This document shows, one piece after another, positions 39,876 through 62,625 of a stretch of 64,000 nucleotides of DNA. Position 1 is the stretch's first letter, and every line of letters starts with the position of its first letter. The stretch comes from an uncultured delta proteobacterium (GTDB lineage: Bacteria > Myxococcota_A > Polyangia > Polyangiales > Polyangiaceae): assembly GCA_963696385.1 (NCBI GenBank), contig CAVOKF010000005.1, positions 928,001 through 992,000 of the forward strand, given 5' to 3'. The position numbers and the translations under genes were made by a program. The notes beneath the pieces are model-generated. The model did not search any database. It had not been told where the DNA came from and saw only the letters and a list, made by a program, of their open reading frames with translations.

Positions 39876-41021
39876 CTAAGGGCACGCGATCGGCACGGGG
39901 GCGCCGGCCGCGATCCACGAGCTGACGATTTCGAGCTCGGGCACGGTGAGCGCCTGCGGGTTCGGCGCGGTGGACGTCGGGTCGGCGGGGTAGGGCATCT
40001 CCCGCCCTGGAATGAGCGCGGCGAGACGCGTACGTTCGGCAGTGGATAGCGCGATCGGGCAAAGATCCCCGTCGGCATCGCAGGCGACCGAGTACACGCG
40101 GGCCTGATTCGGGGCAGCCGCGTCGGCATCCACGGGGGCGCCGGCGTCACACGGCGAGGACGACGCACTCGACGAGCACGGTAGCGATGGCGCCGCCATC
40201 AGAAGCTTGTACATGAGCCAGCTGTGCGCTGGATTGCCGGAGGTCGGCTCAGCGACTCCGCCGCCGAGCTCGGGCGCCGCGCCGTCGACCCCGGAATCCA
40301 CGAACAGCAGTTCGGGTTGGGGCCCGGGATCGATGATCGGCACGTCTTGTGTGAAAGCGAGCGTCGGCGCCTCTGCGACGCCGGCCAAAGGGCCCGTGTT
40401 GGACTCTTCCGCCACACGCCCGATTGCCGTAGCCATAACGCCTTGCGGATCGGTCAATTCCAAACCCATGGCGGGCAGCGCGGGCGCTGCGCCGTGACAC
40501 CCGGCGCCGCCGCACTTGCTCGCGAAGATAGGCAGGACCAGGCCGCAGAAGTCGGGCGGCGATGTCAGCGGCCCCTCGGCGGTCCCCGCGTCGGGCTCGA
40601 TGAGAAATGTCAGCGAGGAGGGTGAGGACTGTGAAAGCGTCGCTCCGTCGATGGTACGCAAACCGAAGGTGTCCGTCGGTCCGCTGGGCGACACGATCGT
40701 CAGCTGGTAGGCCTGCCCAGGAACAAAGGCTTCGTCCGGCAGCGGCGTGATCGTCACGACCCGCGCCACCGGGTCGTACGTGATGGTCGGCACCAGCGCT
40801 GCCGCGCTGTTGCCCACGAGTTCTGCCAGAACAAACGTCTGACGGGCGATGCTGAGAGGCAGGAGCAAGCGATCGAACGACAGCTCGATCGAGTCGCTCG
40901 GAGCGAGAAATCCACCGCGCACGTTCGAGTCCACAAGGTGCACGGCAGGCCCCACCGGGACCGATTCGTTGCTCGCCTTGCCTTGATCGCAGGCGGCCGG
41001 AAATAGGGCTAGACCGATCAG
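39876..41021 (-). CDS. Probable lipoprotein with an Ig-like (Big_5-type) domain and a cytochrome-c-like CX4CH segment; start uncertain
   Basis: FPAAC lipobox-like; IELSFDRLL...YDPVARVVTITP..GQAYQLTI; PIFASKCGGAGCHG...EMP...WIAAGA. Confidence 0.65.
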   Translation of the reverse strand: MIGLALFPAACDQGKASNESVPVGPAVHLVDSNVRGGFLAPSDSIELSFDRLLLPLSIARQTFVLAELVGNSAAALVPTITYDPVARVVTITPLPDEAFVPGQAYQLTIVSPSGPTDTFGLRTIDGATLSQSSPSSLTFLIEPDAGTAEGPLTSPPDFCGLVLPIFASKCGGAGCHGAAPALPAMGLELTDPQGVMATAIGRVAEESNTGPLAGVAEAPTLAFTQDVPIIDPGPQPELLFVDSGVDGAAPELGGGVAEPTSGNPAHSWLMYKLLMAAPSLPCSSSASSSPCDAGAPVDADAAAPNQARVYSVACDADGDLCPIALSTAERTRLAALIPGREMPYPADPTSTAPNPQALTVPELEIVSSWIAAGAPVPIACP

Positions 41022-41275
41022 CTCTCCGAGTAGAGCTGCAGCTGCTCGCGCACGACTTCTTCGCTGACGCCGGTTCTTAGATGGTCCTTCAGGACGTCGG
41101 CGAGAGTGAGCAAGAGTTCGTCCACCCCCTTGTCTTCGATGAGCTTCTGCAGCAGCTGCCGCGCTTCGCGACTCTCGTCGTTGCGCAAGAACTGACGGAC
41201 GGTCTCGAGAGAGATCTCGCCCTGAAAATCCAGGTACATATTCTCTAAGAGGTAGCGAACGAGTTCTTTCACCAT
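41018..41275 (-). CDS. Small helical hypothetical protein (85 aa)
   Basis: GAGGAGG RBS; MVKELVRYLLENMYLDFQGEIS... has protein-like amphipathic composition. Confidence 0.8.
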   Translation of the reverse strand: MVKELVRYLLENMYLDFQGEISLETVRQFLRNDESREARQLLQKLIEDKGVDELLLTLADVLKDHLRTGVSEEVVREQLQLYSES

Positions 41276-41446
41276 CGTCCTCCTCGGCCGCAGGCATGGG
41301 GGGGGGTGTGCAAGGGATAGACTCATATCCCTCGCGGTACGGCGGGTGCAAGGCCGTTTTCGTCTTGTCGCAGTCTTTCCGCAATCCGTCGTCCCCCAAA
41401 ACGGGATGCGTCACCTTTTCTTCGCAGCCCGCAATCGACGAATGGC

Positions 41447-42781
41447 TCATCGGCATTGAGAAAGGACCGCGTCTGCCGGCTCGTGACAAACGAAGCACGG
41501 ACGCGGGTTTCGGTTGAACTGGGTAGCGCAGCGGCCTACGAACCCCGACGTGTGTGGATCGAATCCGCCGCCGATGCCGAGGGCTCCGTGGCACGCGACG
41601 CAGTCGCGCTCGGTGTGACAGCTCACGCAGACGTTCAGGTTGCGTTCGGCTTCGAAGCCGTGACTTCCGGGTTTGCGCGGCGGATCGCTCCAGATGCTCT
41701 TCGGCGGATGGAAGCGCCCGCTGTCCTTGGCGTTCGCTGGACTCGATTCTGCAACTCCAACGCGCAAATGGCAGTCGAGACAGAAGCTTTGCTGCTGGTG
41801 GCAGCTGGTGCACCGCTCGGTGTTCATGCGCGCCTCGATCGCGTGCATGTTCAGATAATCGTTCGGGTGAATGTCGCGCGGCCGGGTGCGCCCGTCGTGG
41901 CAGTCGGTGCAAAAGTCCTCTTTGTGGCAGTTCGCGCAGAACTCCGAGTCGTCCGCAGCGACCGACTTGTGCCGCTCGATGAAGTCCGGGGTGTGCTCGG
42001 CGTTGTGCAACCAGCGAGGCGGGCGCAGCGTTCCGCTTGGGAACATCGTCTGGATCCGGGCCGTTCCGTTCGGCCCCGCCAAGTGGCACGTTTCGCAAGC
42101 GCTTTTTGCGTCGCCCAAGGACGCCGGGTCTGGAGCCTGGTGGCAGCGCAAGCAGCCGCTCATTCGCGGAAGCTGGTCGCGCGTGGCCAGTTCGATCTCG
42201 CGGACGGCGCCGTGGCACTGCGGGCATGCGATGTTCCGATCGGCGTGGGATTTGTGATCGAAAACGAGATTCGCCCTCGGAAGTTCGAGAGGCGCGACGC
42301 GGTTCCCGTCCTCCGGGCGGTACCCTTGATGGCACGTGGCGCACCGGCCCATGGCAGCGTCGCCGGACCTTACGAGTGCCAGATTGGAGTGATCCGTGGC
42401 GTGGCAGCGGTCGCAGACTTCGCCGACCGGCGTGAGCCGATCGGAGGCGCGTCGGCTGGTGGTCGCGCCGGGATGGCACGTCATGCAGGTGGCGCCAATC
42501 TCGCGTCCGAGATGTTTCGCGTGATCGAAGCGGATCGTGATGTGTTGGGCCGGGTAAATGACCTGGCTCGGGCCCGTGTCCGGGTTGGGCGCCCCGGGAG
42601 GAAGCAAGCCGTGGGGCACGGGGCGGTCGTCGGGCAACGGGGCGACGCCGTGGACCGTGGGGCCTTCGCTCTGGGCGAGAGCGATCGGCACGATCACGAG
42701 CAGGGCGAACAGGGGCATGAGCGCCCCGACGAGGCCGAGCGCGACGAAAGACCGAAGCGGCCGGAAGACCTGGCTCCTCAT
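41447..42781 (-). CDS. Periplasmic multiheme cytochrome c (13 CxxCH)
   Basis: CMTCH, CDRCH, CATCH, CPQCH, CLRCH, CETCH, CANCH, CTDCH, CTSCH, CLDCH, CVSCH, CVACH, CFVCH; signal peptide; ATGA overlap with the upstream gene. Confidence 0.93.
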   Translation of the reverse strand: MRSQVFRPLRSFVALGLVGALMPLFALLVIVPIALAQSEGPTVHGVAPLPDDRPVPHGLLPPGAPNPDTGPSQVIYPAQHITIRFDHAKHLGREIGATCMTCHPGATTSRRASDRLTPVGEVCDRCHATDHSNLALVRSGDAAMGRCATCHQGYRPEDGNRVAPLELPRANLVFDHKSHADRNIACPQCHGAVREIELATRDQLPRMSGCLRCHQAPDPASLGDAKSACETCHLAGPNGTARIQTMFPSGTLRPPRWLHNAEHTPDFIERHKSVAADDSEFCANCHKEDFCTDCHDGRTRPRDIHPNDYLNMHAIEARMNTERCTSCHQQQSFCLDCHLRVGVAESSPANAKDSGRFHPPKSIWSDPPRKPGSHGFEAERNLNVCVSCHTERDCVACHGALGIGGGFDPHTSGFVGRCATQFNRNPRPCFVCHEPADAVLSQCR

Positions 42782-44337
42782 TGTTGCGCGGTCTCCCGGG
42801 TGTGCTGCGGCAGCTTGCCCATGTCGAGCGAGAGCAGGAACATGAACCGAAAGCGCTGCCCGACCAGAGCGTTGAAATCGTGCTCCCACTCGAACGAGCC
42901 TCGGCACCGCGGGTCGAAGCGGTACCCCACGTTCGCGACGTATTGGAATCCCGTGGCCGACCGATCCGGACGCAAGTCGTCCTTCCACTGCCAAAGCCCC
43001 GCGCGGCCGCCGACCATGTAACGAGTCTCGATCACCTGTTCGGCCGACACGTCGCCGCCCACCCGATCTCCTTCCGACCCAAAGTCGCCGCTCGCGTGGG
43101 CGGCGATGCGCGTCTCGCCGGTGTGCCAGCGTGCCGACACGTTGCCTCCCTCGTCGAACGGATGACCGTTGGTGGGGTAGTAGCCTCCGGCGCTGTTGGG
43201 CGAGGGCGACGAGACGAAGCCTGCACCGGGGTCGAACGGCGCCGTTTGCACGGTGGAGACCCGTGCATGCGCATTGCCGGCGACCGAGAGGCGTCGATCG
43301 ATGTCGACGTTCGCACGGATACCCAGATCATTTCTCGGCTCCCCCGCGAAGAAGTTCCAGATGCTGTCCCCGTCGAACGCGGGGACGTAGTAATCGTAGT
43401 CGGCGCTGACGGTGAGACGTTGACCGAGGTACCCGTCGAGCGACGCGTAGGCCGACGTGATCCCGGCCCGGTAGAAGTCGTAGACGATCCCGGCCTTGAC
43501 GGCCCCGATCGCGGCAAGATTCGCATCGACCGCGTAGCCCAACCGATCGGACGAAATGCGCGTTCGGTCGTAGACCGCGGGGCTGCTGCCGTCGGGGAAC
43601 TCGGACACGGTCGACGGTCCGGTGTCGTACACCCGCCGGTACGTCAGTCGCCCATGAATCCAGGTTAGTCCGACCGACTCCAGCGCGACGCCGAGCGCCG
43701 GGGCCATTTCGGCAGGCTGGAACTCGGGGTAAAGAAGCGGCTCGAAGCCGGTACGGTCTCCGCGCCAGACCCCGTCGGCCTCGAATCGCGAGGTGCTGAG
43801 CGACATCCCGCCGCGTTGCTCGAGCCCGCCGTAGGCTTCGGCCTTGACGTGGTACGGCGTTGTCACACTGACTTCGCCGCCGTCGAAGGACCACCAGCCG
43901 AGCACGTCGGTCACGTACTGTCGACCCACTTTGAAGCCGAGCCAGCCTCGCGCGAACCGGCGCCCTTCGAGGTAGAAGTACATCAGGTCGACCGCTTGCG
44001 GCGTGAACCCCGGCACGACGCTGCCGAAGATCGTCGGGTCGGATGTCGCGCTCGGCGCACCGTAATCGGCGTCGTAGCGTACGCGCAGCCGGATGCTGAG
44101 ATCAGCCGCGTGCGGGTCGCCCTCGGCGGTGCCCAATAGGTCGTACGCACCCAGACCAAGGGTCGCGGTGAGACGCCGGCGCTCGAGCAGAACTTGGCCA
44201 GTCGGCGAGGTGACGTCGTAGAACTGCGCCGCGCTGTTGGCGGTGACGTCTCCGTCCAGCGCGCGAGCGTCCATGCCAACCAGCATCGCGCCGAACGCCG
44301 CCGTACCGGCTGCGCGCTGCACGAAGCGGATCGTCAT
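42778..44337 (-). CDS. Probable outer-membrane beta-barrel protein
   Basis: Signal peptide ending ARA; alternating Tyr/Gly/Asp-rich strands (KVGRQYV, FDGGEV, QYVANVGYRF, RFMFLLSL). Confidence 0.75.
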   Translation of the reverse strand: MTIRFVQRAAGTAAFGAMLVGMDARALDGDVTANSAAQFYDVTSPTGQVLLERRRLTATLGLGAYDLLGTAEGDPHAADLSIRLRVRYDADYGAPSATSDPTIFGSVVPGFTPQAVDLMYFYLEGRRFARGWLGFKVGRQYVTDVLGWWSFDGGEVSVTTPYHVKAEAYGGLEQRGGMSLSTSRFEADGVWRGDRTGFEPLLYPEFQPAEMAPALGVALESVGLTWIHGRLTYRRVYDTGPSTVSEFPDGSSPAVYDRTRISSDRLGYAVDANLAAIGAVKAGIVYDFYRAGITSAYASLDGYLGQRLTVSADYDYYVPAFDGDSIWNFFAGEPRNDLGIRANVDIDRRLSVAGNAHARVSTVQTAPFDPGAGFVSSPSPNSAGGYYPTNGHPFDEGGNVSARWHTGETRIAAHASGDFGSEGDRVGGDVSAEQVIETRYMVGGRAGLWQWKDDLRPDRSATGFQYVANVGYRFDPRCRGSFEWEHDFNALVGQRFRFMFLLSLDMGKLPQHTRETAQQ

Positions 44338-49339: not shown

Positions 49340-50731
<1,392 letters not shown>

Positions 50732-51185: not shown

Positions 51186-52910
51186 ATGGAGCGTCGAAGT
51201 ATGAAGCCGGCCCCTCGCAACGATACGGTCCATCGTACTGTATTTGACACTGGCGCGAGTCGACTGCGAAGCCTCTGCGGGGCAATCGGGCTTGGCAATC
51301 GGTCGGAGTCGATCGTCGATGTCTTCGGGCGTTTGATTGATCCTTGGGGCCATAGAACCCTTGGAGACTGCCCCGTCTGGCCGTCGTACATCGGCGATGA
51401 TCACACTCCGATCGAGTTCTCGCTGACCTTTGGGGCCAAACCCGAAGTGCGCATCTTGTTGGAGCCACTCGGCGACTCTCCCTCGCTGGTCTCGAACCGG
51501 GACGCGGCCGTCGCTCTTCTCGAATCCATGGCGTCGGAGTTTGCCATTGACCTGATGCGTTTCGAACGGATCCAGAACTTGTTCTGCCCGGCCACGCCCT
51601 CCGGCCTTTTCAGCGTCTGGATTGCCGTGGCCTTTTCGGGCGACTCGCGTCCCGATTTCAAAATATACCTGAACCCGGCCGCCCAGGGACAAAAGCTCGC
51701 GCCGGCGCTTGTTGAGGAAGCCCTCGTGCGCCTCGGGTTCCCCGGCGCGTGGCCAACCGTCAGCCGCAGTCTCTTGCGACGCGGGCCCGAGTGGGACGAA
51801 CTTAACTATCTCGCGCTCGACCTGAGCGAGTCCCCCGACGCACGGGTCAAAGTCTACGCGCGCCATTTCGGCTGCTCGGTGACCGATCTCGAGGCGGTTG
51901 CAAGTGCGTCACGCTCGTACGATCCGGGCGACTTGAAAGCGTTCTTGGGGCTTGTCGCTCCCGACGCGGAGAACGATGTCTTCGAAGGTCGCTCACCATG
52001 CACCTGCTACTCGTTCGTGGGCGGCCAAGGAGATATTCCGGTGGCCGCGACCACGCACTTTCCCATCAATAGCTACGCTCCAAACGACGGTGCGGTGCGA
52101 CATCGCGTTTTGGCTTGCCTTGAGCGTTTCGGGATTGCGTCGGACTCGTACGCTCGCTCAATAGGGGCCTTCGCCAATCGGCCTCTCGACGAAGACATGG
52201 GTATGCACAGTTACGTATCGTTCCGCCGCTATCGTGGCGAGGCACGTCTGACGACGTATCTCGCGGTCGAGGCTTACAGGCCTGGTACGGTGGAAGCGGG
52301 CTCGAACGGGCGAGCCAGTGGCGTGGTCGAGGTCGCCAAGTGCTTCGGCCAGTTCGACGCCATCAGCGAGCATCCGTTTTGCCGCCGCATGGAGCGCGAG
52401 CCAATAGACGCGCGGACCCTTTGGATCCTTCTCGCCAACCTGGATGCGGTAGACCGTGGGTCTGGGGCTTGCGAGAAGCTCCGCATGCTCCCGCAACCGA
52501 GCGAGAGCGCCGCGACCTTCAAAGGACCGCCCGATTCGACCCTCGACGCGTGGCTCAGGCCGGGGCGCTCGCTCGACTCTCGACTCGCCGCGATTGCCGG
52601 TCCGTCGAACGCCGACGAATTCGCGACCGCCTCCATGGCGGTCGAGTTCATGCAAGGCCAGCTTGAGCGTTTCGCGAGCAGTGCACTCCGGCGCTGGCTG
52701 CGCTCGGCCGGACCAGCCGGATGCGCAAACGCGGGTCGTGTCGCAGTTGACCCGCAGGGGCTTGACACGAGAGAATTCTCGGCGGGACTCGGGGCGTTTG
52801 GGCCCGAGAGCGCAGTCGCGCGCGCCGCGTGGCAATTTCTCGATGATCTTTACTCGCTTTGCTACGGCTGCGAGTCGCCTTCGCGCGATCCCTTCGAAGC
52901 GCAGCCCTAG
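51186..52910 (+). CDS. DMATS-family (tryptophan dimethylallyltransferase-like) aromatic prenyltransferase with an extra helical C-terminal domain
   Basis: SYIGDDHTPIEFSL, EVRIL, DFKIYLNP, YLALDL, ARVKVY, YVSFRR, TTYL match the ABBA/DMATS indole-binding Glu and diphosphate-binding R/K/Y pattern. Confidence 0.85.
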   Translation: MERRSMKPAPRNDTVHRTVFDTGASRLRSLCGAIGLGNRSESIVDVFGRLIDPWGHRTLGDCPVWPSYIGDDHTPIEFSLTFGAKPEVRILLEPLGDSPSLVSNRDAAVALLESMASEFAIDLMRFERIQNLFCPATPSGLFSVWIAVAFSGDSRPDFKIYLNPAAQGQKLAPALVEEALVRLGFPGAWPTVSRSLLRRGPEWDELNYLALDLSESPDARVKVYARHFGCSVTDLEAVASASRSYDPGDLKAFLGLVAPDAENDVFEGRSPCTCYSFVGGQGDIPVAATTHFPINSYAPNDGAVRHRVLACLERFGIASDSYARSIGAFANRPLDEDMGMHSYVSFRRYRGEARLTTYLAVEAYRPGTVEAGSNGRASGVVEVAKCFGQFDAISEHPFCRRMEREPIDARTLWILLANLDAVDRGSGACEKLRMLPQPSESAATFKGPPDSTLDAWLRPGRSLDSRLAAIAGPSNADEFATASMAVEFMQGQLERFASSALRRWLRSAGPAGCANAGRVAVDPQGLDTREFSAGLGAFGPESAVARAAWQFLDDLYSLCYGCESPSRDPFEAQP

Positions 52911-52955
52911 AATAGCCATTCGCTTGCGTCACTTCCTCGACACATTCACGAAACT

Positions 52956-53137
52956 AAGTACACCGCCCCAGAACAAAGGGATCAGCCGGGCGGTGTACTT
53001 CGATCGCCGGGAGGCGATTGGGGGTTTGGGGCGAAGCTGCAAGGAAATCAACTTAACACTACTGCGAGGGGTACAGCGCCAGCTCGCAACGCGGACCTAC
53101 CCAGCGACGCTGGGTACCGTTTAACGGGGCGCTGTAC
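52956..53137. other. Cluster of perfect inverted repeats (candidate structured RNA or operator region)
   Basis: 13-bp IR 52956-52968/52988-53000; 10-bp IR 53071-53080/53128-53137 enclosing TACCCAGCG-A-CGCTGGGTA and CCGTT-T-AACGG. Confidence 0.6.
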
Positions 53138-53418
53138 TGAAGGACGTTACGCCGAAGGGCGGGCCAACGCGCGCTCACGATGGCCCAGGCTCACTGCCCG
53201 CGGGCGGCGCCCGGTCCGCCGCATCAACGCAATCGTCGATGCTGGTCTCTTTCATCACGGTCTACGCGCCCGTGTAGGCCGGTGGGCGCAATCCCCATTG
53301 CAGAAGAGCACGCGAGACGATGAGCGGGTAAGCGAGTCGTAGGCATCGCGCCGGGGGCAACAAAATAACGCCATTGCGAACTTGTGCGAGCTGTTGGATC
53401 ATGTGTCGAGGTTTCCAC

Positions 53419-54876
53419 ATGCTCGATAGGCGCCATTTTCTTGCAGGATTGGCATCGACTACGGTTCTTGGTTTTAGCCCTACCGCTCGCCTGTGGGTGA
53501 GCGTCGCGCACGCAGAGTCCACGTTCGAGTCGGTCCCCCCACTCGATGGCGTCCTCCTCACTGACCCCGCGTCTCGAGCCGCCGACGCGGTCGACGTCGG
53601 CAACATCGTTCACCTGACCCCGATCGCCGTGTTGAGACCCGGCTCTGTCGAAGACATCAAGAAGATGGTGCGATTCTGCCGTCGGTTTCACATTCGAATT
53701 GCGGCGCGCGGACAGGGACACACGACGTTCGGTCAGGCCCAGGTCGAAGGCGGTCTGGTCATCGAGATGAGTGCCCTCGATACCATTCACTCCATCGGCC
53801 CCGACACAGCGGACGTGGACGCCGGTGTGCTCTGGAGGGATCTTGTGGAGGCCAGTGTCCCACTTGGCCTGACTCCTCCGGCGCTGACAGGCTTCACAGG
53901 CCTCTCGATTGGCGGCACGCTTTCCGTCGGCGGGATTTCGCCGTCGTACGCGCAGGGCGCGCTAATCAATAACGTGCGGGAGATCGAAGTCGTAACCGGC
54001 GCGGGCGACGTGATGCGCTGCTCTCCCCAACTCAACACCGACCTGTTCGCGGTGGTACGCGCGGGGCTTGGTCAGTGCGCCGTGATCACACGCGCGGTAG
54101 TCGACCTCGTGCCGGCCAAGACGTTCGTGCGCGTCTTCCAGCCGAGTTACACCGACAACGCGACGTTTTTCGCCGATCTGCGAACTCTCGTCGCGAGAGA
54201 AGAGCTTCGCGACATCCTCACGATGTGGGTTCTCAACGGTAGCGGAGGCTGGATCTATGGCCTCAGCGCGGTCGCCTACTTCGACCCGGCGACACCGCCC
54301 GACGCGGCTTTTTTGCTTCGCGGTCTGAGCGTCGCCCCGGCCAACGTGCCTTTCGTGGACGTTCCGTATTTGCCGTACGTGCTTAGTGTCGATACACAGA
54401 TCGAGGAGTTTATGCGGGAGGGGTTGTGGGACGGCGTTGTGCACCCTTGGTTCGACGTCTTTCTTCCAGAGTCGGCCGTCGAGCGCTATGTCGGCGACGT
54501 CATTCCAACTCTTGCCCCCGACGATGTGGGAGCGACGGGCTTTCTCTTGCTTTTCCCGCACAAGAAGCGGAGGTCCACGAGTTCGTTCCTGCGTCTGCCG
54601 GAAGGCGACGTGGTTTATTTGTTCGATATTCTGACCGCGGCCGCTGCGCCCGGCCCGGACCCGGCCTTTGCGACTCGGATGCTCCGTCGGAACCGCGCCT
54701 TGTTCGAGAAGGCCCGCGTCGTCGGCGGGACTCGCTACCCCATCGGTTCGATCCCCTTCGACGAAACGGACTGGGTGGAACAGTACGGCGCGCAATGGAG
54801 TGAATTGATGTTGCTCAAACAGCGATTCGACCCGGATGACCTTTTGGCGCCGGGGCCCGGAATTTTTGGGAAATAG
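53419..54876 (+). CDS. Tat-exported FAD-linked oxidoreductase, cytokinin-dehydrogenase-like (VAO/PCMH family)
   Basis: DRRHFL Tat motif; ARGQGHT covalent-FAD His motif; GGTLSVGGI, HPWFDVF, FDPDDLLAPGPGIF. Confidence 0.9.
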   Translation: MLDRRHFLAGLASTTVLGFSPTARLWVSVAHAESTFESVPPLDGVLLTDPASRAADAVDVGNIVHLTPIAVLRPGSVEDIKKMVRFCRRFHIRIAARGQGHTTFGQAQVEGGLVIEMSALDTIHSIGPDTADVDAGVLWRDLVEASVPLGLTPPALTGFTGLSIGGTLSVGGISPSYAQGALINNVREIEVVTGAGDVMRCSPQLNTDLFAVVRAGLGQCAVITRAVVDLVPAKTFVRVFQPSYTDNATFFADLRTLVAREELRDILTMWVLNGSGGWIYGLSAVAYFDPATPPDAAFLLRGLSVAPANVPFVDVPYLPYVLSVDTQIEEFMREGLWDGVVHPWFDVFLPESAVERYVGDVIPTLAPDDVGATGFLLLFPHKKRRSTSSFLRLPEGDVVYLFDILTAAAAPGPDPAFATRMLRRNRALFEKARVVGGTRYPIGSIPFDETDWVEQYGAQWSELMLLKQRFDPDDLLAPGPGIFGK

Positions 54877-54921
54877 TTTCGGAGTGCACACCGACCGGGT
54901 GACGCCTATCGGTTAAATCCA

Positions 54922-56316
54922 ATGGTAGACCTGGCAAAGGACATGTTCCTCCGTTCCCTCGCCGAACCGTTCAAGACGAAGGTGGTGGAGAGGGTTCGCC
55001 TGCCGGATCGCGCCGATCGCACGCGGGTGCTTGCGGAGGCCTTCTATTCGCCCGCTTACATGAATTCCGCCGACGTTTGTATCGACTTGGTCACGGATAG
55101 TGGAACGGGAGCTATGAGCGATGAGCAATGGTCGGCGCTCATGCGCGGTGATGAAGCCTACGTGCGCTCGAAGAGTTTCTTGGCGTTCGAGAGGACGGTC
55201 CAAGAAGTTTGTGGATTTGCGCATGTGATTCCGACGCACCAAGGACGTGCGGCCGAGAACATCGTCATGGAGCTGCTTCTGAAGCCGGGCGATATCGTGC
55301 TGAGCAACACCCACTTCGATACGACCAAAGCGCACGTCGAGCATCGGGGCGCGACACCCATCGATCTCGTATGCGAGCGCCTATGGCGGTTTCAAGAGCC
55401 GCATCCGTTCAAGGGCAATGTGGATCTTGAGCGGTTGGAAGTGGCACTGAAGCGTTACCACGACCGCGTCCGGCTCATCGTGGTCACCGTCCTCAATAAC
55501 ATGGCGTGTTCGTCTCCAGTCTCAATGGAAAATATTCGCGAGACGCGGTCACTGGCGAAGCAATATAATATACCACTATTTTTGGACGCCTGCCGATTCG
55601 CGGAAAATGCTCATTTCATAAAAGCTCGCGAGACCGGTTACGAGAGCAAGAGCATTCCCGATATCGTATCGGAGATGATGTCCTATGCCGACGGCTGTTG
55701 GATGAGCGCGAAGAAAGATGCACTCGTCAATATCGGTGGATTCATCGCCACCAACGATCAGGATTTTGCGCGACGTTGCCAGGAAAAATTGGTGCTCTAC
55801 GAAGGGTTTTATACGTATGGGGGTCTTGCCCGACGCGATCTAGAGGCAATAGCGGTCGGGCTTCGGGAGGGCACGGACGAGGACTACTTGGCGCATAGAA
55901 CCTCGTTGGTTGCGTACTTGGGTGAGCGAATGGAGGAGGCAGGTCTCGTTGTAAGTAAGCCGATCGGAGGCTCTGGCGTCTTTGTGGATGTCCAAGCTCT
56001 GTATCCCCATCTGGGTCCAGAAAAATTGCCTGGAATTGCGCTATTCTCTGACTTCTATATCGAAGGTGGCATTCGGGTCGGGGCGGCACCATTCTCGATG
56101 TTCACACTGTCGTCGCAGGGCGAAATTACCGAGCGAATCTTTCAGTTTGCGCGGTTTGCGATCCCGCGGAGGGTGTACGGCAAGGCGCACATGGATTATG
56201 TCGCGGAAGTGGCCCGCGTTGTAAAAGCGAAGGCATTGTTGAATGCTGGGTATCGACTTGTCGAAAAGCCGTCGGTACTTGGTCATTTTTTTGCCAAGTT
56301 TGCTCCACTTGGCTGA
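54922..56316 (+). CDS. tnaA: Tryptophanase-like PLP-dependent beta-eliminating lyase
   Basis: IDLVTDSGT, GDEAY, HQGRAAE, HFDTT, FKGN, DACRFAEN, MSAKKD (PLP Lys), AIPRRVY, GHFF. Asp in FDTT and His in HFF point to Trpase rather than tyrosine phenol-lyase. Confidence 0.85.
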   Translation: MVDLAKDMFLRSLAEPFKTKVVERVRLPDRADRTRVLAEAFYSPAYMNSADVCIDLVTDSGTGAMSDEQWSALMRGDEAYVRSKSFLAFERTVQEVCGFAHVIPTHQGRAAENIVMELLLKPGDIVLSNTHFDTTKAHVEHRGATPIDLVCERLWRFQEPHPFKGNVDLERLEVALKRYHDRVRLIVVTVLNNMACSSPVSMENIRETRSLAKQYNIPLFLDACRFAENAHFIKARETGYESKSIPDIVSEMMSYADGCWMSAKKDALVNIGGFIATNDQDFARRCQEKLVLYEGFYTYGGLARRDLEAIAVGLREGTDEDYLAHRTSLVAYLGERMEEAGLVVSKPIGGSGVFVDVQALYPHLGPEKLPGIALFSDFYIEGGIRVGAAPFSMFTLSSQGEITERIFQFARFAIPRRVYGKAHMDYVAEVARVVKAKALLNAGYRLVEKPSVLGHFFAKFAPLG

Positions 56317-56331
56317 TCGCGAAGCAAATCA

Positions 56332-56754
56332 ATGACTGTTCGTAATAAAACTCTGACTTTCGAATTTGTGTCGGATGTTTTGCTGGTCCTTCGCGAAAAT
56401 GCCGTGACGCCTCGCGACGAAGATTGGGACGCCTTTCTGAAGGTGCTTGTCGAGAATCGTGAAAACTTCGAAAAACTTAGGATTCTTGTTCGGACGGAAG
56501 GCGGTGGACCCAACGTGCTGCAACGCAAGCGACTTCAGAAGGCCCTTGGCGGTAGACCGATACGAGTCGCGGTGGTGACGAACAGCATTCCGGTCCGCTT
56601 CCTCGTTTCATCGATCGCCTTGCTGAACCGGGCCATTCGATCTTTTGCCATTGATGAGATCAAAGGCGCATATGAACATCTGAGCTTGACACCCGCCGAG
56701 ATCCGGCTTGCAGACGAAGCGATCGTGAAAATGAACGAAGTCGTCGAATTCTAA
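56332..56754 (+). CDS. Small STAS/SEC14-like alpha/beta protein
   Basis: EDWDAFL...ILVRTEGGGPN..QRK..VAVVTNS..R pattern; 15 nt downstream of the lyase gene. Confidence 0.65.
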   Translation: MTVRNKTLTFEFVSDVLLVLRENAVTPRDEDWDAFLKVLVENRENFEKLRILVRTEGGGPNVLQRKRLQKALGGRPIRVAVVTNSIPVRFLVSSIALLNRAIRSFAIDEIKGAYEHLSLTPAEIRLADEAIVKMNEVVEF

Positions 56755-57440: not shown

Positions 57441-58121
57441 TCACGCCTGCCCAACCCGTCGCCCGAGCCACGCTCCCACGGCTCCCGCGACGATCATCAT
57501 CGCTCCGTGACCGACGAGCACGTGGTAGGCGCTGTCGTCGGGGCACACGAGGTTCATCATCACGGCAGCGAGCGCGCCGCATGCGACGCCGAGGGCCGAG
57601 ACTTTCAGAGCGGACCCCGTGGCGAAAGCGTGCCGGAATGCCCATGCCGCGAGGGCGAGCGGGCCGCCGGCAAAAATGGCGCTCCGCACCAGGCAGTTTG
57701 CGGTGCCGAGCCAGAAGCTCTCGCTCCACTCGACCGGAAAGGCGGCCGCTGTCGCCGACACGAACAGGCCGACAGCGCCGACGGTCAGGGCGACGATGCG
57801 GCCGGGCGTCTCGCCGAGGCCGCGCGATCCTTGTCGGGTGGCGGCGGCCAGGGCGATCGCCGCGGCAGCGAGCGGGATCAGGACGCCGAGCACAACGATA
57901 CCGCTAGGGCGTCCGCCGCCGTGGATTCGGAAGACGGCAAGCCAGCACGCGTCGTATGCGAGCGCGGCCGCGAGAGCACCCGCACGCATTGCCCGCACGC
58001 GCGATCGGGTCGGCGAGACAGGGCGTGCCGGCACGCCGAACGAGGGCAACGGCGGCCGCGCGCCGTCCGCAAAGGGATCGGGAATATCCCGGAGAAGCTG
58101 AAGGTCGAGGTCGGGTTTCAC
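57441..58121 (-). CDS. NrsF-like (DUF1109) membrane anti-sigma factor
   Basis: About 6 TM segments; conserved Cys (ANC) and LVCP....HVLVGH motif; directly downstream of the ECF sigma gene. Confidence 0.8.
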   Translation of the reverse strand: MKPDLDLQLLRDIPDPFADGARPPLPSFGVPARPVSPTRSRVRAMRAGALAAALAYDACWLAVFRIHGGGRPSGIVVLGVLIPLAAAAIALAAATRQGSRGLGETPGRIVALTVGAVGLFVSATAAAFPVEWSESFWLGTANCLVRSAIFAGGPLALAAWAFRHAFATGSALKVSALGVACGALAAVMMNLVCPDDSAYHVLVGHGAMMIVAGAVGAWLGRRVGQA

Positions 58122-58125
58122 GACG

Positions 58126-58776
58126 TCAACGCCCCGCCCCGGCGGCACGATCGAGTGCAGCGCGCAGCGCCTCGTAGGCACGGAACGCTCGGATCTTGAC
58201 GGCGCCGACGCTAGCACCAACCACCTGTGCGGCCTCGCTCACGCTCAAGCCCTCGAAGCGCAGCAAGAGGAACGCTTCGCGCTGCAGGGTGGGCAGCTCG
58301 CTCAGCGTGCGCCGGACCACGTCGAGCATTTCCTGTGCGGCGAGCGCTTCGTCTCCGCGCGTGTCCACGGCGGCCTCGGGCTGCTGCGCGTGATCGTCCT
58401 CGGCCGTCGATCCCGCCGTCGTCGCGGGTCGCGCCCGCACTCGTCGGACATGATCACGAAAAACGTTGCGCCCGATCGCGAGAATCCACGGAACGGCCGG
58501 CGCGCCGGCGCCGAAGCTTCCGCGGGCGCGGTGCACCCGAAGAAACGCCTCCTGAATCAGGTCCTCGGCGAGCGCGCGATCTCCGCAGAGGCGGATGAGG
58601 AAGCCGCGCAAACGCGGCGCGCCTCGCCGGTAGAGCTCGTCGAACGCAGCGTCATCACCGCGGGCGTAGCGATCCATCGCCTCGTCGAGCGCTCGGTCCG
58701 ACGGATCCGCGCCCCGGCTTCGCTCGCCGGGGATGAGCGGCAAGGGCCGCGAGAGGTTGTCGGTCGGCTCGACCAT
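58126..58776 (-). CDS. ECF RNA polymerase sigma factor (SigF/ECF16-like)
   Basis: GDDAAFDELY, AEDLIQEAFL, WILAIGRN, EGLSVSEAA, VKIRAFRA. Confidence 0.93.
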   Translation of the reverse strand: MVEPTDNLSRPLPLIPGERSRGADPSDRALDEAMDRYARGDDAAFDELYRRGAPRLRGFLIRLCGDRALAEDLIQEAFLRVHRARGSFGAGAPAVPWILAIGRNVFRDHVRRVRARPATTAGSTAEDDHAQQPEAAVDTRGDEALAAQEMLDVVRRTLSELPTLQREAFLLLRFEGLSVSEAAQVVGASVGAVKIRAFRAYEALRAALDRAAGAGR

Positions 58777-58899
58777 GGACCGTGCCCGGAAAGGATTGGC
58801 ACTCTCCCCGATAGGCACCCACATCGTCAACAGTCCCCGCACGCAACCTGGGACGGTGATCGCAGTCGCGACAGAAGGCACGCCCAGCACGCTCGGGTT

Positions 58900-58925
58900 T
58901 ACGCACGCGCAGGCGCAACGTTATC
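58900..58925 (-). promoter_or_regulatory. Putative ECF promoter for the sigma/anti-sigma genes
   Basis: The minus strand reads GATAAC-N16-CGTA. Confidence 0.55.
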
Positions 58926-59862
58926 CGAACGACACGCCGGAGAAGAGCCCGCTCGAGACCCACTCGCGAAACCAGGCCATCACGCGCGCCACGGCGACCT
59001 CCTCGCTGAGGTCGCCGAAGCCCGCCGCTGCCCGCTCCAAGGAGGTGCCGAGGGTGGCACCGCCCCAAAGACCGTTCAAGAGGTCGAACATCGGGTCCGA
59101 CAGATCCATGCGCCAGACCGTGGGTCCGGAGCGGTACACGGCGGCAGCGGAAGCGCAACGATCCGGGATCGCTTGGCTTTTGCCCTCGCGAAACGCCTGA
59201 AAGTATGTGTTTACGGGGTATACGAATCGCAGGAGCCGAAATGCGGGCGTCGTCGTCATTCGGGCGTCTACCCACCGCTCGACGGGCACGTCGCGCAGCC
59301 CCGACAGCGTCAGGGGTTCGGTGCTTGCAGCGTGGATCACTTCGACGATCGCCCATTCGAGCGTGGCGAGGTCCGCGAGGAACGCGCGAGGCGCGATCGA
59401 TTCGAACGACTCCTGCACCCGACACCATTCCGACATCCGGCGGCCATAGGCGTTCAGATTCGGGGAGGTGGACGGGTACAGCGCGATGTACGCGCGGGCC
59501 ATTCGGTCGAACGCCGGCTCGCCCACCGCCGCCTGCAGCGCGGGATAGTCGTCCGCGAGACATTCGATCAGCCGCAGGTGGTAGGCGTGCCGGTAGACTT
59601 CGAGACGTTCGAGGCAAGACAGCCGCGGTCCAGGCGTCAGCACCCGGTCGGCGTCGGAGGCCGACGGAGCCGCCGCCGTCTCGGGCGACATCACCGCGCG
59701 CGCAAACCACTCCTGCCGAGCACGCAGCGAGCCGTCGTCGGGCGGCGCGTCCGGGGCAATCGCCGGTGCGCTCGTGGTGCCGGGCAGGCGCCATCGAACG
59801 ACAGGGGTCGCACTGGCGCGCTCGCGTTCGACGACGGTTTCGACGATCGCGCGGCGAGTCAC
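58921..59862 (-). CDS. DUF2063 / BufC-like RiPP partner protein
   Basis: ERLEVYRHAYHLRLIECLADDYPAL, YPSTSPNLNAYG, DLATLEWA; GTGA overlap with DUF692. Confidence 0.9.
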   Translation of the reverse strand: MTRRAIVETVVERERASATPVVRWRLPGTTSAPAIAPDAPPDDGSLRARQEWFARAVMSPETAAAPSASDADRVLTPGPRLSCLERLEVYRHAYHLRLIECLADDYPALQAAVGEPAFDRMARAYIALYPSTSPNLNAYGRRMSEWCRVQESFESIAPRAFLADLATLEWAIVEVIHAASTEPLTLSGLRDVPVERWVDARMTTTPAFRLLRFVYPVNTYFQAFREGKSQAIPDRCASAAAVYRSGPTVWRMDLSDPMFDLLNGLWGGATLGTSLERAAAGFGDLSEEVAVARVMAWFREWVSSGLFSGVSFG

Positions 59863-60689
59863 GATCCGCCTCCCATGAAATGCCGGGCACGGAGCGCTTC
59901 GGCGTGGGTCTCGTCGAACGACGGAATCTCCGCGTCCCACTCGAGCAGAACGGAAGTGCCGCCCCCGAGCCGATAGGCATCGCCGAAGAGACGCCACACG
60001 TCGTCCACGACGGGACCGATATGCGAATCGATGACGTGGGTTCCGTGATTCGTATGTCCGGCCACGTGCATTTGCACGACGCGATCGAAGGGGACCGCCG
60101 CCAAGTAGACGCGCGGGTCGAACCCGTGATTGAAGGCGGAGACGTAGATATTATTGACGTCGAGCAGAATGGCGCAATCGGATTCTTCCGCCAGTCGGCC
60201 CAAAAATTCCCACTCGCGCATGGATGCGCCCGCGAACTCGACGTACGTCGACGGGTTCTCGAGCGCCAAGGGAGCGCCGAGGAAGTCTTGCACGTAACGG
60301 ACTCGCGCCGAGACGTGCGCCAGCGCCTCTTCGGTGTACGGCATCGGCAGCAGGTCGTGCGTGTTTTTGCCCGAGACACCCGTCCAGCACAGATGATCGG
60401 AGACCCAGCGAGCGCCTGTGCGGTCGCGAAGGACGCGGAGATCGGCCAGGTAGCCGCGGTCGATGGGATCGGTCGATCCGATCGACAGCGACACGCCGTG
60501 CATCACAATCGGGTATCGCCCGGCGATCGCATCCAGGTAATCGAGCGGCCGTCCGGACGTCTGCAGGTAGTTGTCGCTGATGATTTCGAACCAGTCGACG
60601 TCGGGCTGATGCTCGAGAATGTGACGATAATGCGCGGTACGCAACCCGAGGCCAATTCCGAGATTCGCAAGGCCGAAACGGTTGGCCAT
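59859..60689 (-). CDS. DUF692 multinuclear non-heme iron oxidase (BufB-like)
   Basis: GLGLR, MHGVSLSIG, SDHLCW, ENPSTY, LLDVNNIYV, HVAGH, IDSH, LEWD. Confidence 0.96.
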   Translation of the reverse strand: MANRFGLANLGIGLGLRTAHYRHILEHQPDVDWFEIISDNYLQTSGRPLDYLDAIAGRYPIVMHGVSLSIGSTDPIDRGYLADLRVLRDRTGARWVSDHLCWTGVSGKNTHDLLPMPYTEEALAHVSARVRYVQDFLGAPLALENPSTYVEFAGASMREWEFLGRLAEESDCAILLDVNNIYVSAFNHGFDPRVYLAAVPFDRVVQMHVAGHTNHGTHVIDSHIGPVVDDVWRLFGDAYRLGGGTSVLLEWDAEIPSFDETHAEALRARHFMGGGS

Positions 60690-60775
60690 GATCACCCCAT
60701 GCTCCTCGCGGCGGCCGACGTCCAATGAGGCGCGGTGCGCCGGCGCGTGCATCGCCGGCGCCCTCGAGCGTCGAC

Positions 60776-61048
60776 TCAAGCCGTCTTGCAGCCTCCTTGA
60801 CCCTTGCAGTCGTTCTGGGCCTTGCAGCCGTGCTTGTCGGTCTTGCAGCCGCCCTGACCCTTGCAATCGTTCTGGCCCTTGCAGGCGTGTTTCGCCGGAG
60901 CCGCCGCCGTTTGGGGCGCGGCGCTGCCCGACGCGGCAGGCGCCGCCGCGGCCGGCTGCTGCGCCGGGGGCGTTTCACCGGCACAGCCGGCGGCGCCAAA
61001 GAGAATTCCACCCACAGCCGCTGCAATCAACGAATGCGATATTTTCAT
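60776..61048 (-). CDS. Bufferin-type (BufA2-like) Cys-rich RiPP precursor, predicted lipoprotein
   Basis: 90 aa: signal peptide ending AAGC, Ala/Pro linker, then two tandem KH(A/G)CK(G/A)QNDCKGQGGCKT units; GAGGA RBS. Confidence 0.9.
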   Translation of the reverse strand: MKISHSLIAAAVGGILFGAAGCAGETPPAQQPAAAAPAASGSAAPQTAAAPAKHACKGQNDCKGQGGCKTDKHGCKAQNDCKGQGGCKTA

Positions 61049-61109
61049 GATATTCCTCGTGAGTTGACGGTGTTTGATCGTGCCCCGCCTCGCTGGGCCG
61101 CGATTCGAA

Positions 61110-61134
61110 TACGTGCCCGGTGCTTTTTCGTTTC
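61110..61134 (-). promoter_or_regulatory. Putative ECF promoter for the precursor-DUF692-DUF2063 operon
   Basis: The minus strand reads GAAAC-N16-CGTA, about 60 nt upstream of the precursor ATG. Confidence 0.55.
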
Positions 61135-61194
61135 GCTCGTTCTTCTCCCAGGCGGGCGGCGGCGAGGGTTGCCCCATCCGGCCGCGCCCGTCAA

Positions 61195-62625
61195 TCACAT
61201 CGAGGTGGGGGGCGTCGTGATCGCTCTGCGAATCGAAGCTCGCGGAGCGTGGTCGTCGAAGGTGATCGCCGTGCTCGCGACCCGGACGCCAAGATCGGAC
61301 CATAGCGCGGCCAGATCGACCGAGCCGGGCGCAAGAGCCAGAGCCCGGTACAGTTCGGAGACCACGGTCGTGCCCGTCGCGCGGTCGGCGGCTTCGAGAA
61401 AGCGCGCGATGTCGACGGTCGCCGCGGCGTCATCCCGGGCGCCGATCAAGCCGCGGAGCACGTCATCGAAGGACCGGTCCCCGCGCGTCGCTTCGCGGAT
61501 CCGAACGTCGGCGACGAAGCAGAAGAGGGCTCCGCCCCAATACGTACGGCCCCAGGTTCGGGTTCGATCGAGACCCCGGTCGCCCGCCTCGGGCAGCCCC
61601 TGGGGGAGGCCTTGCGCGAGCTCCCGCCAGTATCGTTCGGCGGTCACCAGCCCGGCGCGCGCCCGCACGATCGGCTCGACGTATGTCGCAATCCCCTCGT
61701 CCAACCAGGCGTGCGCGTGCCCGAGCGACGGCAAGGTGGCGTGGATCAGTTCGTGCGTAACGACCCAGTCGTCTCGCGCGGCCTCGGCCGTCAGTCCGTC
61801 GGCCGGTCGAATTACGACCGCCGGGCCGCCCTCGGTGATCGTTTCGCCGCGGGTGCTTTGGCCCAACCCCGGCACGATGATCACGAGCACTCTCGGCACC
61901 GGCAAGGCGCCGTAATAGGCGGCCAGGCTCGAGGCTCCGCGGGCGACCCAAGCCGTCAATTCGGGGGGGGTGAGCGGCAGGCCACGGGGTGCAAGTGCCA
62001 CGTCGATCCGCGCGGCGCCAACGGGGATCGTGTCGAGTCGAAAGGAGCCGAACACGGCGAAGCTCGCATTGGCCATGTCGGCCGTGGCAGCCTCGAACGT
62101 ATCGGCGGAACCACCAACCGCACGGATGCCGGTCGCGAAGTGCGTCGTGCCCTTCGTGGTCACTCGAAATCGAAAACGATTGCGGCCAACCGGTTCGGTG
62201 GGGCGGAGCAGCCACGTGGAGGGTGGCGCGACGATCGAATCGCCGGCAGCCAGCGCCGACTCCGCGTCGTTCAGACGGTGCGCCGCCTCGTCGAGCGCAA
62301 ACCCGTAACGGATCCGGCATCCCCCGCGGCATGGCGCGACCCACGTAGTGCCGTCGCTCGGCAGCGGCTTCCAGCCGCCGTCCACGGCGTATTGGGGGTC
62401 GCGTACGAATGGGGCGCCGTCCGGGTCGACTTCGAGAGCCTGCGCTTCGGTGGGCGCAAAGTCGGCGGCAATGCGTAGAACGTTTGCCGCGGGGCCGACC
62501 GCTTCGACGGCGTACGTCCAGACGAGAGGCGGGCCGGAAGGGGGCGCATGAAGCGCGCGAGCGCCGCCGGGGGTCTCGGGCATCGAACCCGCACAACCGG
62601 CCAAGGCCAACGCCGAGGCGAGCAT
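61195..62625 (-). CDS. Gluzincin (M1/M61-like) zinc metallopeptidase lipoprotein; start uncertain
   Basis: LAGC lipobox; HELIH followed by WLDEGIATY (downstream Glu ligand); RTYWGGA. Confidence 0.85.
   Translation of the reverse strand: MLASALALAGCAGSMPETPGGARALHAPPSGPPLVWTYAVEAVGPAANVLRIAADFAPTEAQALEVDPDGAPFVRDPQYAVDGGWKPLPSDGTTWVAPCRGGCRIRYGFALDEAAHRLNDAESALAAGDSIVAPPSTWLLRPTEPVGRNRFRFRVTTKGTTHFATGIRAVGGSADTFEAATADMANASFAVFGSFRLDTIPVGAARIDVALAPRGLPLTPPELTAWVARGASSLAAYYGALPVPRVLVIIVPGLGQSTRGETITEGGPAVVIRPADGLTAEAARDDWVVTHELIHATLPSLGHAHAWLDEGIATYVEPIVRARAGLVTAERYWRELAQGLPQGLPEAGDRGLDRTRTWGRTYWGGALFCFVADVRIREATRGDRSFDDVLRGLIGARDDAAATVDIARFLEAADRATGTTVVSELYRALALAPGSVDLAALWSDLGVRVASTAITFDDHAPRASIRRAITTPPTSM

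Follow-up and report, generated by a model that had tools for sequence, protein, structure and literature searches.

Clusters that combine a DMATS-type prenyltransferase with a tryptophanase are known from actinomycetes, where the Type A (IptA/PriB) systems lead to prenylindole, 6-prenylindole and 6-DMAI-3-carbaldehyde being among the products reported (Ozaki et al. 2013, PMC3617294). The core of the cassette described here is therefore not new, and the route from DMATS and tryptophanase to a prenylindole suggested in the initial annotation matches the Type A logic. Cytokinin dehydrogenases (CKX), such as ZmCKX1 and Rhodococcus FasE, hold the isoprenoid chain over the flavin, Asp169 polarising the substrate nitrogen (PMC9340367). 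They need a Tyr for covalent flavinylation, and a CKX-like protein from Nostoc lacking the Asp is inactive on cytokinins (PMC8234997); many bacterial CKX homologues are of uncertain function, according to a review on hormone-like molecules. The heme-oxygenase-like diiron (HDO) proteins include CADD, BesC and UndA, as well as AetD and SktA, which cut the side chain of substituted (halogenated) Trp (PMC13108848). Among indoles with an oxidised prenyl chain, indiacen B, belonging to the indiacens of the myxobacterium Sandaracinus, was made from 4-iodoindole (PMC4660955).

The locus studied here lies in a window of 64,000 nucleotides and consists of four co-oriented plus-strand ORFs situated 3' of fumC (49340-50731), with the same ends as in the initial annotation (Table 1). 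The gene assignments made there were borne out by the Trp_DMAT, FAD_binding_4/Cytokin-bind and Beta_elim_lyase profiles, all of which match. Each ORF has a single close match in genome G000, and dN/dS against contig L158 is 0.06-0.22 across the four enzymes/domains. These ORFs are genuine genes that evolve under purifying selection and make up a conserved cassette.

Table 1. Features of the locus (positions in the window).
Feature	Position	Strand	Remarks
DMATS-type aromatic prenyltransferase domain	51186..52280	+	residues 1-365 of 574-aa protein; Trp_DMAT, 6ZRX model match
Decayed heme-oxygenase-like (HDO, PF14518-type) domain fused to DMATS	52281..52910	+	diiron ligands lost
Dispersed repeat (~185 bp), MITE-like, in the gap between genes 1 and 2	52954..53138	no strand	outside the pathway
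FAD oxidoreductase, cytokinin-dehydrogenase fold, predicted Tat export	53419..54876	+	485 aa; catalytic Asp replaced by Gly
Tryptophanase of DMATS-linked myxobacterial clade, rebuilt ring-binding pocket	54922..56316	+	464 aa
SpoIIAA/STAS-fold protein standing alone, predicted to bind or sense a small molecule	56332..56754	+	140 aa; model and fold match

The gap between genes 1 and 2 is 508 bp long and contains the dispersed repeat, the other gaps being 45 and 15 bp. The repeat has 27 matches in G000 covering at least 80% of its length with 71-100% identity (itself included), and forms hairpins at 52956-53000 and 53071-53137; in the related locus L023 this gap is 116 bp. The repeat-filled gap separates the DMATS gene from genes 2-4, which counts against the pathway preferred below. 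An alternative start of the first ORF is possible at 51201 (P0005, 569 aa), with GGAG upstream. The promoter/terminator scan of the locus gave a result at chance level. The stretch is present in four soil DNA runs from one study, and no RNA run is listed among those that contain it.

In the first ORF, the Trp_DMAT domain is matched at residues 58-322 (E 2e-17), and TIGR03429 scores 130.5 bits, under its cut-off of 163.85. The closest solved relatives, 6ZRX (the best, E 7e-58), IptA 7W8U and PriB 5INJ, belong to the Type A group, and the model has the ABBA barrel fold (TM(target) 0.92 and rmsd 2.1 against 6ZRX). Residues E77, R89, K159, Y161, R220, K222, Y224 and Y358 are invariant in all 35 aligned relatives; they correspond to the indole-binding Glu, the diphosphate-binding Arg/Lys and the Tyr shield. 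H291 aligns with H312 of PriB, the His linked to C6 selectivity, and is replaced by Tyr in 12 of the 35 relatives. The enzyme is most likely C6-type, since it is structurally closest to Trp C6-prenyltransferases and has the C6-linked His, with the reservation that regiochemistry is not safely readable at ~35% identity. The DMATS tree is a quick tree.

The final ~200 amino acids of the same ORF are a decayed HDO domain, missed in the initial annotation together with the HDO/tryptophanase exchange described below. PF14518 is carried by 20 of 59 homologues, and all six E-H-E-H-E-H ligands are kept in 22 of 40 DMATS-HDO fusions; L070, L072 and Polyangium L085 provide intact examples. The profile of the intact domains, which have the set of three His and three carboxylates, matches CADD (1RCW, E 1.6e-5) and also 7TWA; AetD and SktA are not matched by it. 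Unlike the described HDOs, these relatives are fused to a prenyltransferase, and in the window the dimetal set is missing, with one of six ligands left and the helix bearing the first ligand pair gone. The dN/dS ratio is 0.48 in the HDO part versus 0.22 in the DMATS part. An assembly artefact was rejected as the cause, since the independent contig L158 shows this loss too. As far as the sequence tells, the domain is dead, its metal ligands being lost; its fold, too, is assigned from the sequence, because Foldseek with the full fusion model gave DMATS matches only, among the matches listed.

The second gene encodes a protein that, like CKX, matches FAD_binding_4 (E 3e-25) and Cytokin-bind (E 4e-25) over the full length. 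Among solved structures, plant cytokinin dehydrogenases come closest to it (E 2e-57), while the BBE match is weak (E 0.08); orthology with EasE/BBE was rejected, and the analogy with EasE made in the initial annotation is not supported by these matches. The twin-Arg leader, with Arg-Arg at positions 4-5 in 115 of the best 120 relatives, agrees with the export proposed there; this leader and the neighbouring DMATS gene distinguish the oxidase from CKX. The FAD-attachment His is present (GHT for GHS; H101 in 120 of the best 120 relatives), as is the HPW motif, and T157, D325, W344, D346, D403 and Y440 are found in all of these 120. However, both the catalytic Asp169 of maize and the adjacent Tyr are absent (G158, F159), and the CKX motifs DFG, PHPWLN and HFG are changed to DVG, VHPWFD and QYG. 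Gly occupies the Asp position in 116 of the best 120 relatives and Asp in none; the flavinylation-Tyr position, Phe in this oxidase, holds Tyr in 66 and Phe in 54 of them. True CKX identity was rejected. Action on a C-prenyl substrate would fit the loss of the catalytic Asp, since in CKX the Asp polarises the substrate nitrogen. Several more distant DMATS-linked oxidases (L078, L087, L107, L112, L115) keep the Asp, which weakens this argument.

The third gene product matches Beta_elim_lyase (E 7e-70) and the tryptophanase model PRK13238 (565.6 bits, cut-off 285), and stays under the TnaA equivalog cut-offs (TIGR02617, 407 of 826 bits; NF053783, 464 of 750). It has the PLP Lys K265, the catalytic Tyr Y80, the Trpase-type D133 and the C-terminal H455, and Y80, R109, D133, N193, D222, R225, K265 and R411 are kept in all 120 listed clade members. 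The tyrosine phenol-lyase (TPL) model TIGR02618 comes near the tryptophanase models with 462 bits; TPL identity was rejected, as Asp133, Ala389 and His455 stand where TPL has its specific Thr124, Arg381 and Phe448. The canonical ring pocket of tryptophanases is absent, the F36, E380 and G382 positions being altered. In particular, the position of TPL F36 is non-Phe in 114 of the 120 listed clade members and Phe in 9/9 unlinked controls, and the E380 position is Ala or Gly in all 120 and Glu in 21/21 controls. This rebuilding is confined to the DMATS-linked myxobacterial clade, while actinomycete DMATS-linked tryptophanases retain the normal Phe/Glu pocket, so it is not required for 6-prenyl-Trp. 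Judging from these residues, it is a substituted Trp that the clade has apparently been remodelled to accept, and the pocket may point to another prenyl position or substrate. The tryptophanase is accessory, since the clade is present in 2 of 11 same-genus genomes having DMATS.

The fourth gene product gave a weak match to the SpoIIAA-like profile (E 0.06), and the sequence alignment search found no solved relative. Its model (pLDDT 90) has the STAS fold, the best match being the SpoIIAA-like 2Q3L (Z 10.1, rmsd 3.9, 111 aligned), and the best Foldseek E is 2e-3, in line with the small STAS-like protein of the initial annotation. Of 60 relatives, seven gave strong profile matches (E<1e-45), and each of these is also DMATS-positive. 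The modelled fold and this linkage suggest a binder, carrier or sensor of a hydrophobic product.

All four genes occur together in 13 loci and in five gene orders, confirming that they co-occur elsewhere; recurrence of the set in other genomes in other orders places the co-occurrence beyond chance. The linkage was reached from three independent starting points, with loci selected by the DMATS, the lyase or the oxidase. The lyase clade is present in 12 of 400 genomes of the order, and the stretches fetched from these 12 contain DMATS in 10, the oxidase in 10 and the STAS gene in 11. Among metagenome loci selected by the oxidase, DMATS is present in 10/10 of those with at least 50% identity and 2.5 kb of sequence on both sides, and in 5/17 of those with lower identity. 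The oxidase is the steadiest DMATS partner; DMATS and the clade tryptophanase occur without it in L089, L101, L143 and L150.

The most informative feature of the locus family is the exchange of HDO and tryptophanase. The 67 loci with DMATS and oxidase comprise 18 with tryptophanase, 42 with intact HDO and 7 with neither, and the two are mutually exclusive (both in 0 loci). The motif regex missed intact HDOs with a differently spaced first motif, as well as L024 and L115 (read by eye), and the comparison was repeated with a profile, in which 42/42 holds by construction. The side-chain modules beside the constant oxidase vary (tryptophanase, HDO, HDO with kynureninase, ALDH), and what such changing partners leave in common as a target for the oxidase is the prenyl group. 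The dead HDO domain would be a remnant of an earlier side-chain-cutting enzyme, its step having been taken over by the tryptophanase. HMG-CoA reductase and type 2 IPP isomerase genes are found in G000 and also beside related DMATS genes. Cultured strains with sub-versions of the cassette are Hyalangium versicolor (L101), Minicystis rosea (L115), Polyangium (L085/L132/L141) and Calothrix NIES-267 (L107).

Our preferred reading, which we hold at an even chance, is that the cassette makes an oxidised prenyl-indole via prenyl-Trp, prenylindole and extracytoplasmic chain oxidation; we infer all its substrates, products and compartments. Besides the repeat-filled gap, it has against it the accessory tryptophanase, the Phe at the flavinylation position together with the inactive Nostoc protein, the Asp-bearing distant oxidases, the normal pocket of the actinomycete lyases, and the loci with DMATS and clade tryptophanase but no oxidase. 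The DMATS would prenylate the benzene ring of L-tryptophan, most likely at C6, and the specialised tryptophanase would split the prenyl-Trp into prenylindole, releasing pyruvate and ammonia. Oxidation of the prenyl chain is predicted to follow outside the cytoplasm (in the periplasm), carried out by the Tat-exported flavoprotein; its FAD would take up a hydride from the benzylic carbon of the chain, and the likely product is either 3-methylbutadienyl-indole or an allylic alcohol/enal. As a carrier or sensor, the SpoIIAA-fold protein would bind this hydrophobic compound, and for this reason a signal is favoured over a bulk antibiotic.

The cassette resembles Type A in the DMATS adjoining a tryptophanase and in the sensor genes nearby. 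It differs by the additional Tat CKX-fold oxidase and STAS protein, by the dead HDO fused to the DMATS and by its lyase, which forms part of a distinct clade and has the rebuilt pocket. The four-gene conservon of actinomycetes (kinase, two hypothetical genes, ATP/GTP-binding protein) is also missing: conservon clusters 8, 9, 11 and 12 were seen in actinomycete loci only, and none at 43001-64000 of the window. The predicted product is similar to indiacens, both being indoles of myxobacteria whose benzene ring bears an oxidised prenyl chain, and a flavoprotein-made diene is postulated for EasE as well. Still, indiacen B is C4-substituted and chlorinated, while the locus has no halogenase and its DMATS is C6-like, and the oxidase, unlike EasE, is CKX-like. 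The indiacen analogy of the initial annotation is conjectural; no Sandaracinus name occurs among the 79 named loci or among the 120 listed lyase relatives, a minority of which are named, both lists being capped.

It is possible, if doubtful, that prenylindole itself is the end product and signal, and that the exported oxidase is its off-switch or a self-protection enzyme, removing or hydroxylating the chain as CKX does for cytokinins. The nearest characterised relatives of the oxidase do degrade an isoprenoid signal, its predicted export sets it apart from the synthesis steps, relatives without a DMATS match occur in G033, G059 and 12 of the 17 loci below 50% identity, and related loci contain sensor-type genes (STAS, FIST, V4R/DUF2378-like, kinases). 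However, no Asp remains at the catalytic position in any of the best 120 relatives, and the imine hydrolysis of CKX is easier chemistry than cleaving a prenyl group off an aryl carbon. We consider it unlikely that the same genes act in another order or on another substrate, the lyase making plain indole or taking oxidised prenyl-Trp or C4/C5/C7- or geranyl-Trp, and the DMATS prenylating elsewhere or later, with indiacen-type 4-dienylindoles as one case. The closeness of the DMATS to Trp C6-prenyltransferases, its C6-selectivity His and the lack of a Sandaracinus name among the listed loci and lyase relatives speak against this, while the normal pocket of actinomycete lyases adjoining C6/C5-type DMATS genes, the unsafe regiochemistry, the Tyr variants at His291, the existence of a myxobacterial C4 dienylindole (indiacen B) and the diene step postulated for EasE (PMC4280535) speak for it.

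The residues of the lyase at the TPL-specific positions, together with kynureninase neighbours in related loci, which point to Trp, make it very improbable that tyrosine or some other aromatic accepts the prenyl group and that the lyase is a TPL variant, even though the TPL model scores close to the tryptophanase ones and a bacterial Tyr O-prenyltransferase exists (PMC11727010). Decay of the cassette here, or chance assembly of unrelated genes, is hardly credible: the dead HDO domain, the repeat insertion and the low GC3 of genes 3 and 4 (0.63 and 0.57, in the lowest 3% of 762 long ORFs) could be read in this way, but stops and frameshifts are absent, and the low dN/dS and the conservation of the four genes in differing orders contradict it.

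The initial annotation regarded the combination as uncharacterised, which holds for the whole set, not described in the open literature searched (with few subscription papers), and fails for its DMATS-tryptophanase core; the 46 tested prenyltransferases of PMC11727010 could include a myxobacterial member. The open literature searched yielded no indiacen gene cluster, no paper joining cytokinin dehydrogenase, myxobacteria and prenyltransferase, and none joining Sandaracinus, dimethylallyl and indole; prenyl-linked or fused HDOs are not mentioned in the 2026 HDO review. New here are the DMATS-fused dead HDO, the DMATS-linked lyase clade, the Asp-less Tat CKX-fold partner and the HDO/tryptophanase exclusion.

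The locus family offers three candidate new enzymes, namely a CKX-fold oxidase unable to be a cytokinin dehydrogenase, an apparently rebuilt tryptophanase clade and the DMATS-fused HDOs, and it presents a PLP lyase that has repeatedly taken the place of a diiron oxidase, the dead domain of which persists here. We tentatively suggest, as a broader possibility, that DMATS and the CKX-fold oxidase are the fixed core of undescribed, widespread myxobacterial prenyl-indole signalling modules, in which a many-times-swapped plug-in cutter (an uncharacterised HDO, HDO with kynureninase, or a newly specialised prenyl-tryptophanase) would set the molecule made. The CKX-fold enzyme would then be a C-prenyl desaturase, which could explain dienyl indoles such as indiacens and the role of Asp-less bacterial CKX homologues. 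For myxobacterial prenyl-indoles no gene cluster was found in the open literature searched, and this locus may supply their genetic basis.

The initial annotation had placed the four ORFs downstream of fumC correctly, and family matches were obtained for each of them. In G000, the genome to which the window belongs, each gene is represented by one close copy only, and the closest named relatives of the DMATS, among the named loci listed and according to a quick tree, are Polyangiaceae records. The intergenic gaps are 45 bp (genes 2-3), 15 bp (genes 3-4) and 508 bp (genes 1-2). About 185 bp of the last gap is a repeat with two hairpins, which has 67 matches in G000, 27 of them near-full-length (71-100% identity). 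A separate 100-bp element has imperfect 31-nt terminal inverted repeats with CTAG ends and shows 30 near-full-length matches in G000 (93-100% identity, itself counted). The latter is a young MITE-like family; the 185-bp family is older and could represent a MITE or a structured RNA.

Coordinates of features in the window and in compared loci (L numbers)
Feature	Location	Strand	Remark
100-bp element	window 50911-51010
Gene 1, DMATS with decayed C-terminal HDO domain	window 51186-52910	+
185-bp repeat	window 52954-53138
Gene 2, CKX-fold oxidase	window 53419-54876	+
Gene 3, tryptophanase	window 54922-56316	+
Gene 4, STAS protein	window 56332-56754	+
NrsF-type anti-sigma gene (PF06532)	within window 57441-61303	-	family match
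Multiheme cytochrome c ORF	window 41447-42994, within 39876-44337	-	many CxxCH motifs; beta-barrel-like ORF adjoins
Kynureninase-like gene	L072:9674-10888		directly after intact DMATS-HDO fusion
Kynureninase-like gene	L081:2323-3468		directly after intact DMATS-HDO fusion

Searches from three different starting genes agree on the cassette. Starting from DMATS, it was present in 11 of 30 same-genus genomes, 10 of which also have the oxidase; among the 79 named DMATS loci listed, the oxidase occurs in 27, tryptophanase in 20 and the STAS gene in 6. Starting from the lyase, 400 genomes of the order were searched and 12 scored E<1e-160; the selected stretches contain DMATS in 10, the oxidase in 10 and the STAS gene in 11 of 12 cases. 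Of the two loci lacking DMATS, one is a contig of just 6 kb and the other lies where its contig begins. Starting from the oxidase, DMATS was found in 31 of 80 metagenome loci, and in the 27 loci with 2.5 kb on both sides it stands beside the oxidase in 10 of 10 cases at identity of at least 50%, versus 5 of 17 below 50%. Complete four-gene sets, in five gene orders, occur in 13 loci (the window, L023, L071, L073, L074, L075, L077, L147, L149, L158, L167, L170, L181), with close kin among them (L075/L077, L071/L181, window/L158).

In comparison with the close contig L158, dN/dS is 0.22 for the DMATS domain, 0.16 for the oxidase, 0.06 for the lyase, 0.11 for the STAS gene and 0.48 for the C-terminal domain of gene 1, with the same ranking against L023. 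GC3 of the lyase-STAS pair (0.63 and 0.57, genome median near 0.78) suggests later acquisition or low expression.

For residues 1-365 of gene 1 the model is an ABBA barrel whose nearest structures are those of 6-DMATS enzymes, and the catalytic residues are all in place. His291 aligns with PriB His312, which we take to be the C6-selectivity histidine. PMC11727010 describes an active-site His as important for C6 selectivity in prenyltransferases. The C-terminal domain, overlooked by the initial annotation, matches PF14518 in 20 of 59 homologues. The profile of intact domains matches CADD and the BesC entry 7TWA, and HDOs are defined, according to PMC13108848, by a 3-His/3-carboxylate set. All six ligands are retained in 22 of 40 DMATS-HDO fusions, while the window domain has one left and lacks the helix bearing the first pair. 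The window belongs to a 15-row clade (quick DMATS tree, SH-aLRT 97). None of the 13 full fusions in this clade has every ligand, and its sister group is two intact fusions.

An intact HDO and a tryptophanase exclude each other in the loci compared. In 67 DMATS+oxidase loci (71 minus 4 duplicates), tryptophanase occurs in 18, HDO with the H-x3-E/D-x2-H motif in 42, both in none and neither in seven (six short or cut contigs and L208). Profile searches of 26 tryptophanase loci, none actinomycete and several being short contigs, found motif-bearing HDO in none and decayed HDO in 13; that of L089, L101 and L217 is of a different, N-terminal type. The oxidase tree shows 14 changes of tryptophanase state, versus a shuffled mean of 16; among 12 independent pairs, about 10 join loss of HDO with presence of tryptophanase and none shows the opposite (median p 0.002). 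Since AetD and SktA are HDOs capable of cutting the side chain of ring-substituted Trp, we infer that HDO and lyase are alternatives for one step. Kynureninase, often downstream of intact HDO (L032, L072, L081, L096, L171, L185, L190), hints at ring opening in these versions, with a possible route to prenyl-anthranilate where HDO is the ring-opening oxygenase.

The lyase carries tryptophanase-type Asp133 and His455. The 11 myxobacterial-type DMATS-linked lyases form a single clade (FastTree, support 100), separate from 9 unlinked and 12 linked actinomycete/cyanobacterial lyases. The best 120 clade members, Hyalangium versicolor, H. minutum and Enhygromyxa salina among them, retain all catalytic residues. 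The residues of the ring pocket differ, however: the TPL Phe36 position is non-Phe in 114 members, and there is Ala or Gly at the Glu380 position in 120, Pro at that of Gly382 in 106 and Phe at that of Thr450 in 120. Such changes fit adaptation to substituted Trp, a reading weakened by their absence from actinomycete linked lyases.

Plant CKXs are the nearest solved relatives of the oxidase, matching over the full length, and the FAD His is retained. Asp169 is essential in CKX, as PMC9340367, PMC10610038 and PMC8234997 state. Of 120 near oxidase relatives, 116 have Gly at this position and none has Asp; Asp325, Asp346 and Asp403 are retained instead. Gene 2, with Gly here, was thus rejected as a true CKX; still, it could act in a CKX-like manner, taking hydride from an isoprenoid carbon over the flavin. 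As the oxidase stays while the side-chain module changes, its probable target is the prenyl chain; EasE is postulated to form a diene by oxidising a benzylic carbon (PMC4280535). Against this reading of gene 2, the oxidase has Phe where flavinylation needs Tyr, and Asp is kept in more distant DMATS-linked oxidases.

Gene 4 is modelled with a SpoIIAA/STAS fold (Atlas lead 0.88, with 29% of members carrying PF11964). Of 60 relatives, seven have a strong member and all seven are DMATS-positive; weaker paralogues are found elsewhere too. In other loci its slot is taken by a different small protein that, by eye, resembles STAS (cluster 6), or by one of DUF2378/V4R-like type, suggesting that gene 4 encodes a binder or sensor.

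L089, L101 (Hyalangium versicolor) and L217 combine decayed N-terminal HDO-DMATS, a clade tryptophanase and a styrene/indole-monooxygenase-like gene (plus P450 in L089 and L101), a candidate prenyl-oxindole/isatin pathway, one in a cultured strain. Cyanobacterial DMATS loci contain HDO, P450 and CKX-like genes (L107, Calothrix parasitica NIES-267), tryptophanase and CKX-like genes (L112), or tryptophanase and IPP isomerase (L095). In L078, L087, L104, L109, L123, L125, L128, L130 and L131, DMATS-HDO is flanked by FIST-domain proteins and by a multiheme-cytochrome-like gene, which may serve as electron acceptor or sensor partner. Upstream of the NrsF-type gene, sigma-factor-like, DUF692-like and Cys-rich small ORFs were read by eye, and L023, L024 and L027 have genes resembling this set close to the cassette.

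The DMATS/tryptophanase pairing proposed initially follows known actinomycete logic, the Type A cluster (PMC3617294). As to the suggested indiacen link, indiacen B is a C4 compound (PMC4660955), and passages of PMC9306752 name no indiacen genes. The open literature searched describes neither the oxidase and STAS partner nor the HDO fusion and dedicated lyase clade. The cassette is genuine and conserved, an uncharacterised variant within a known type of cluster. It is likely to form a prenylindole, while the whole predicted chain, including prenyl oxidation, stands at even chances.
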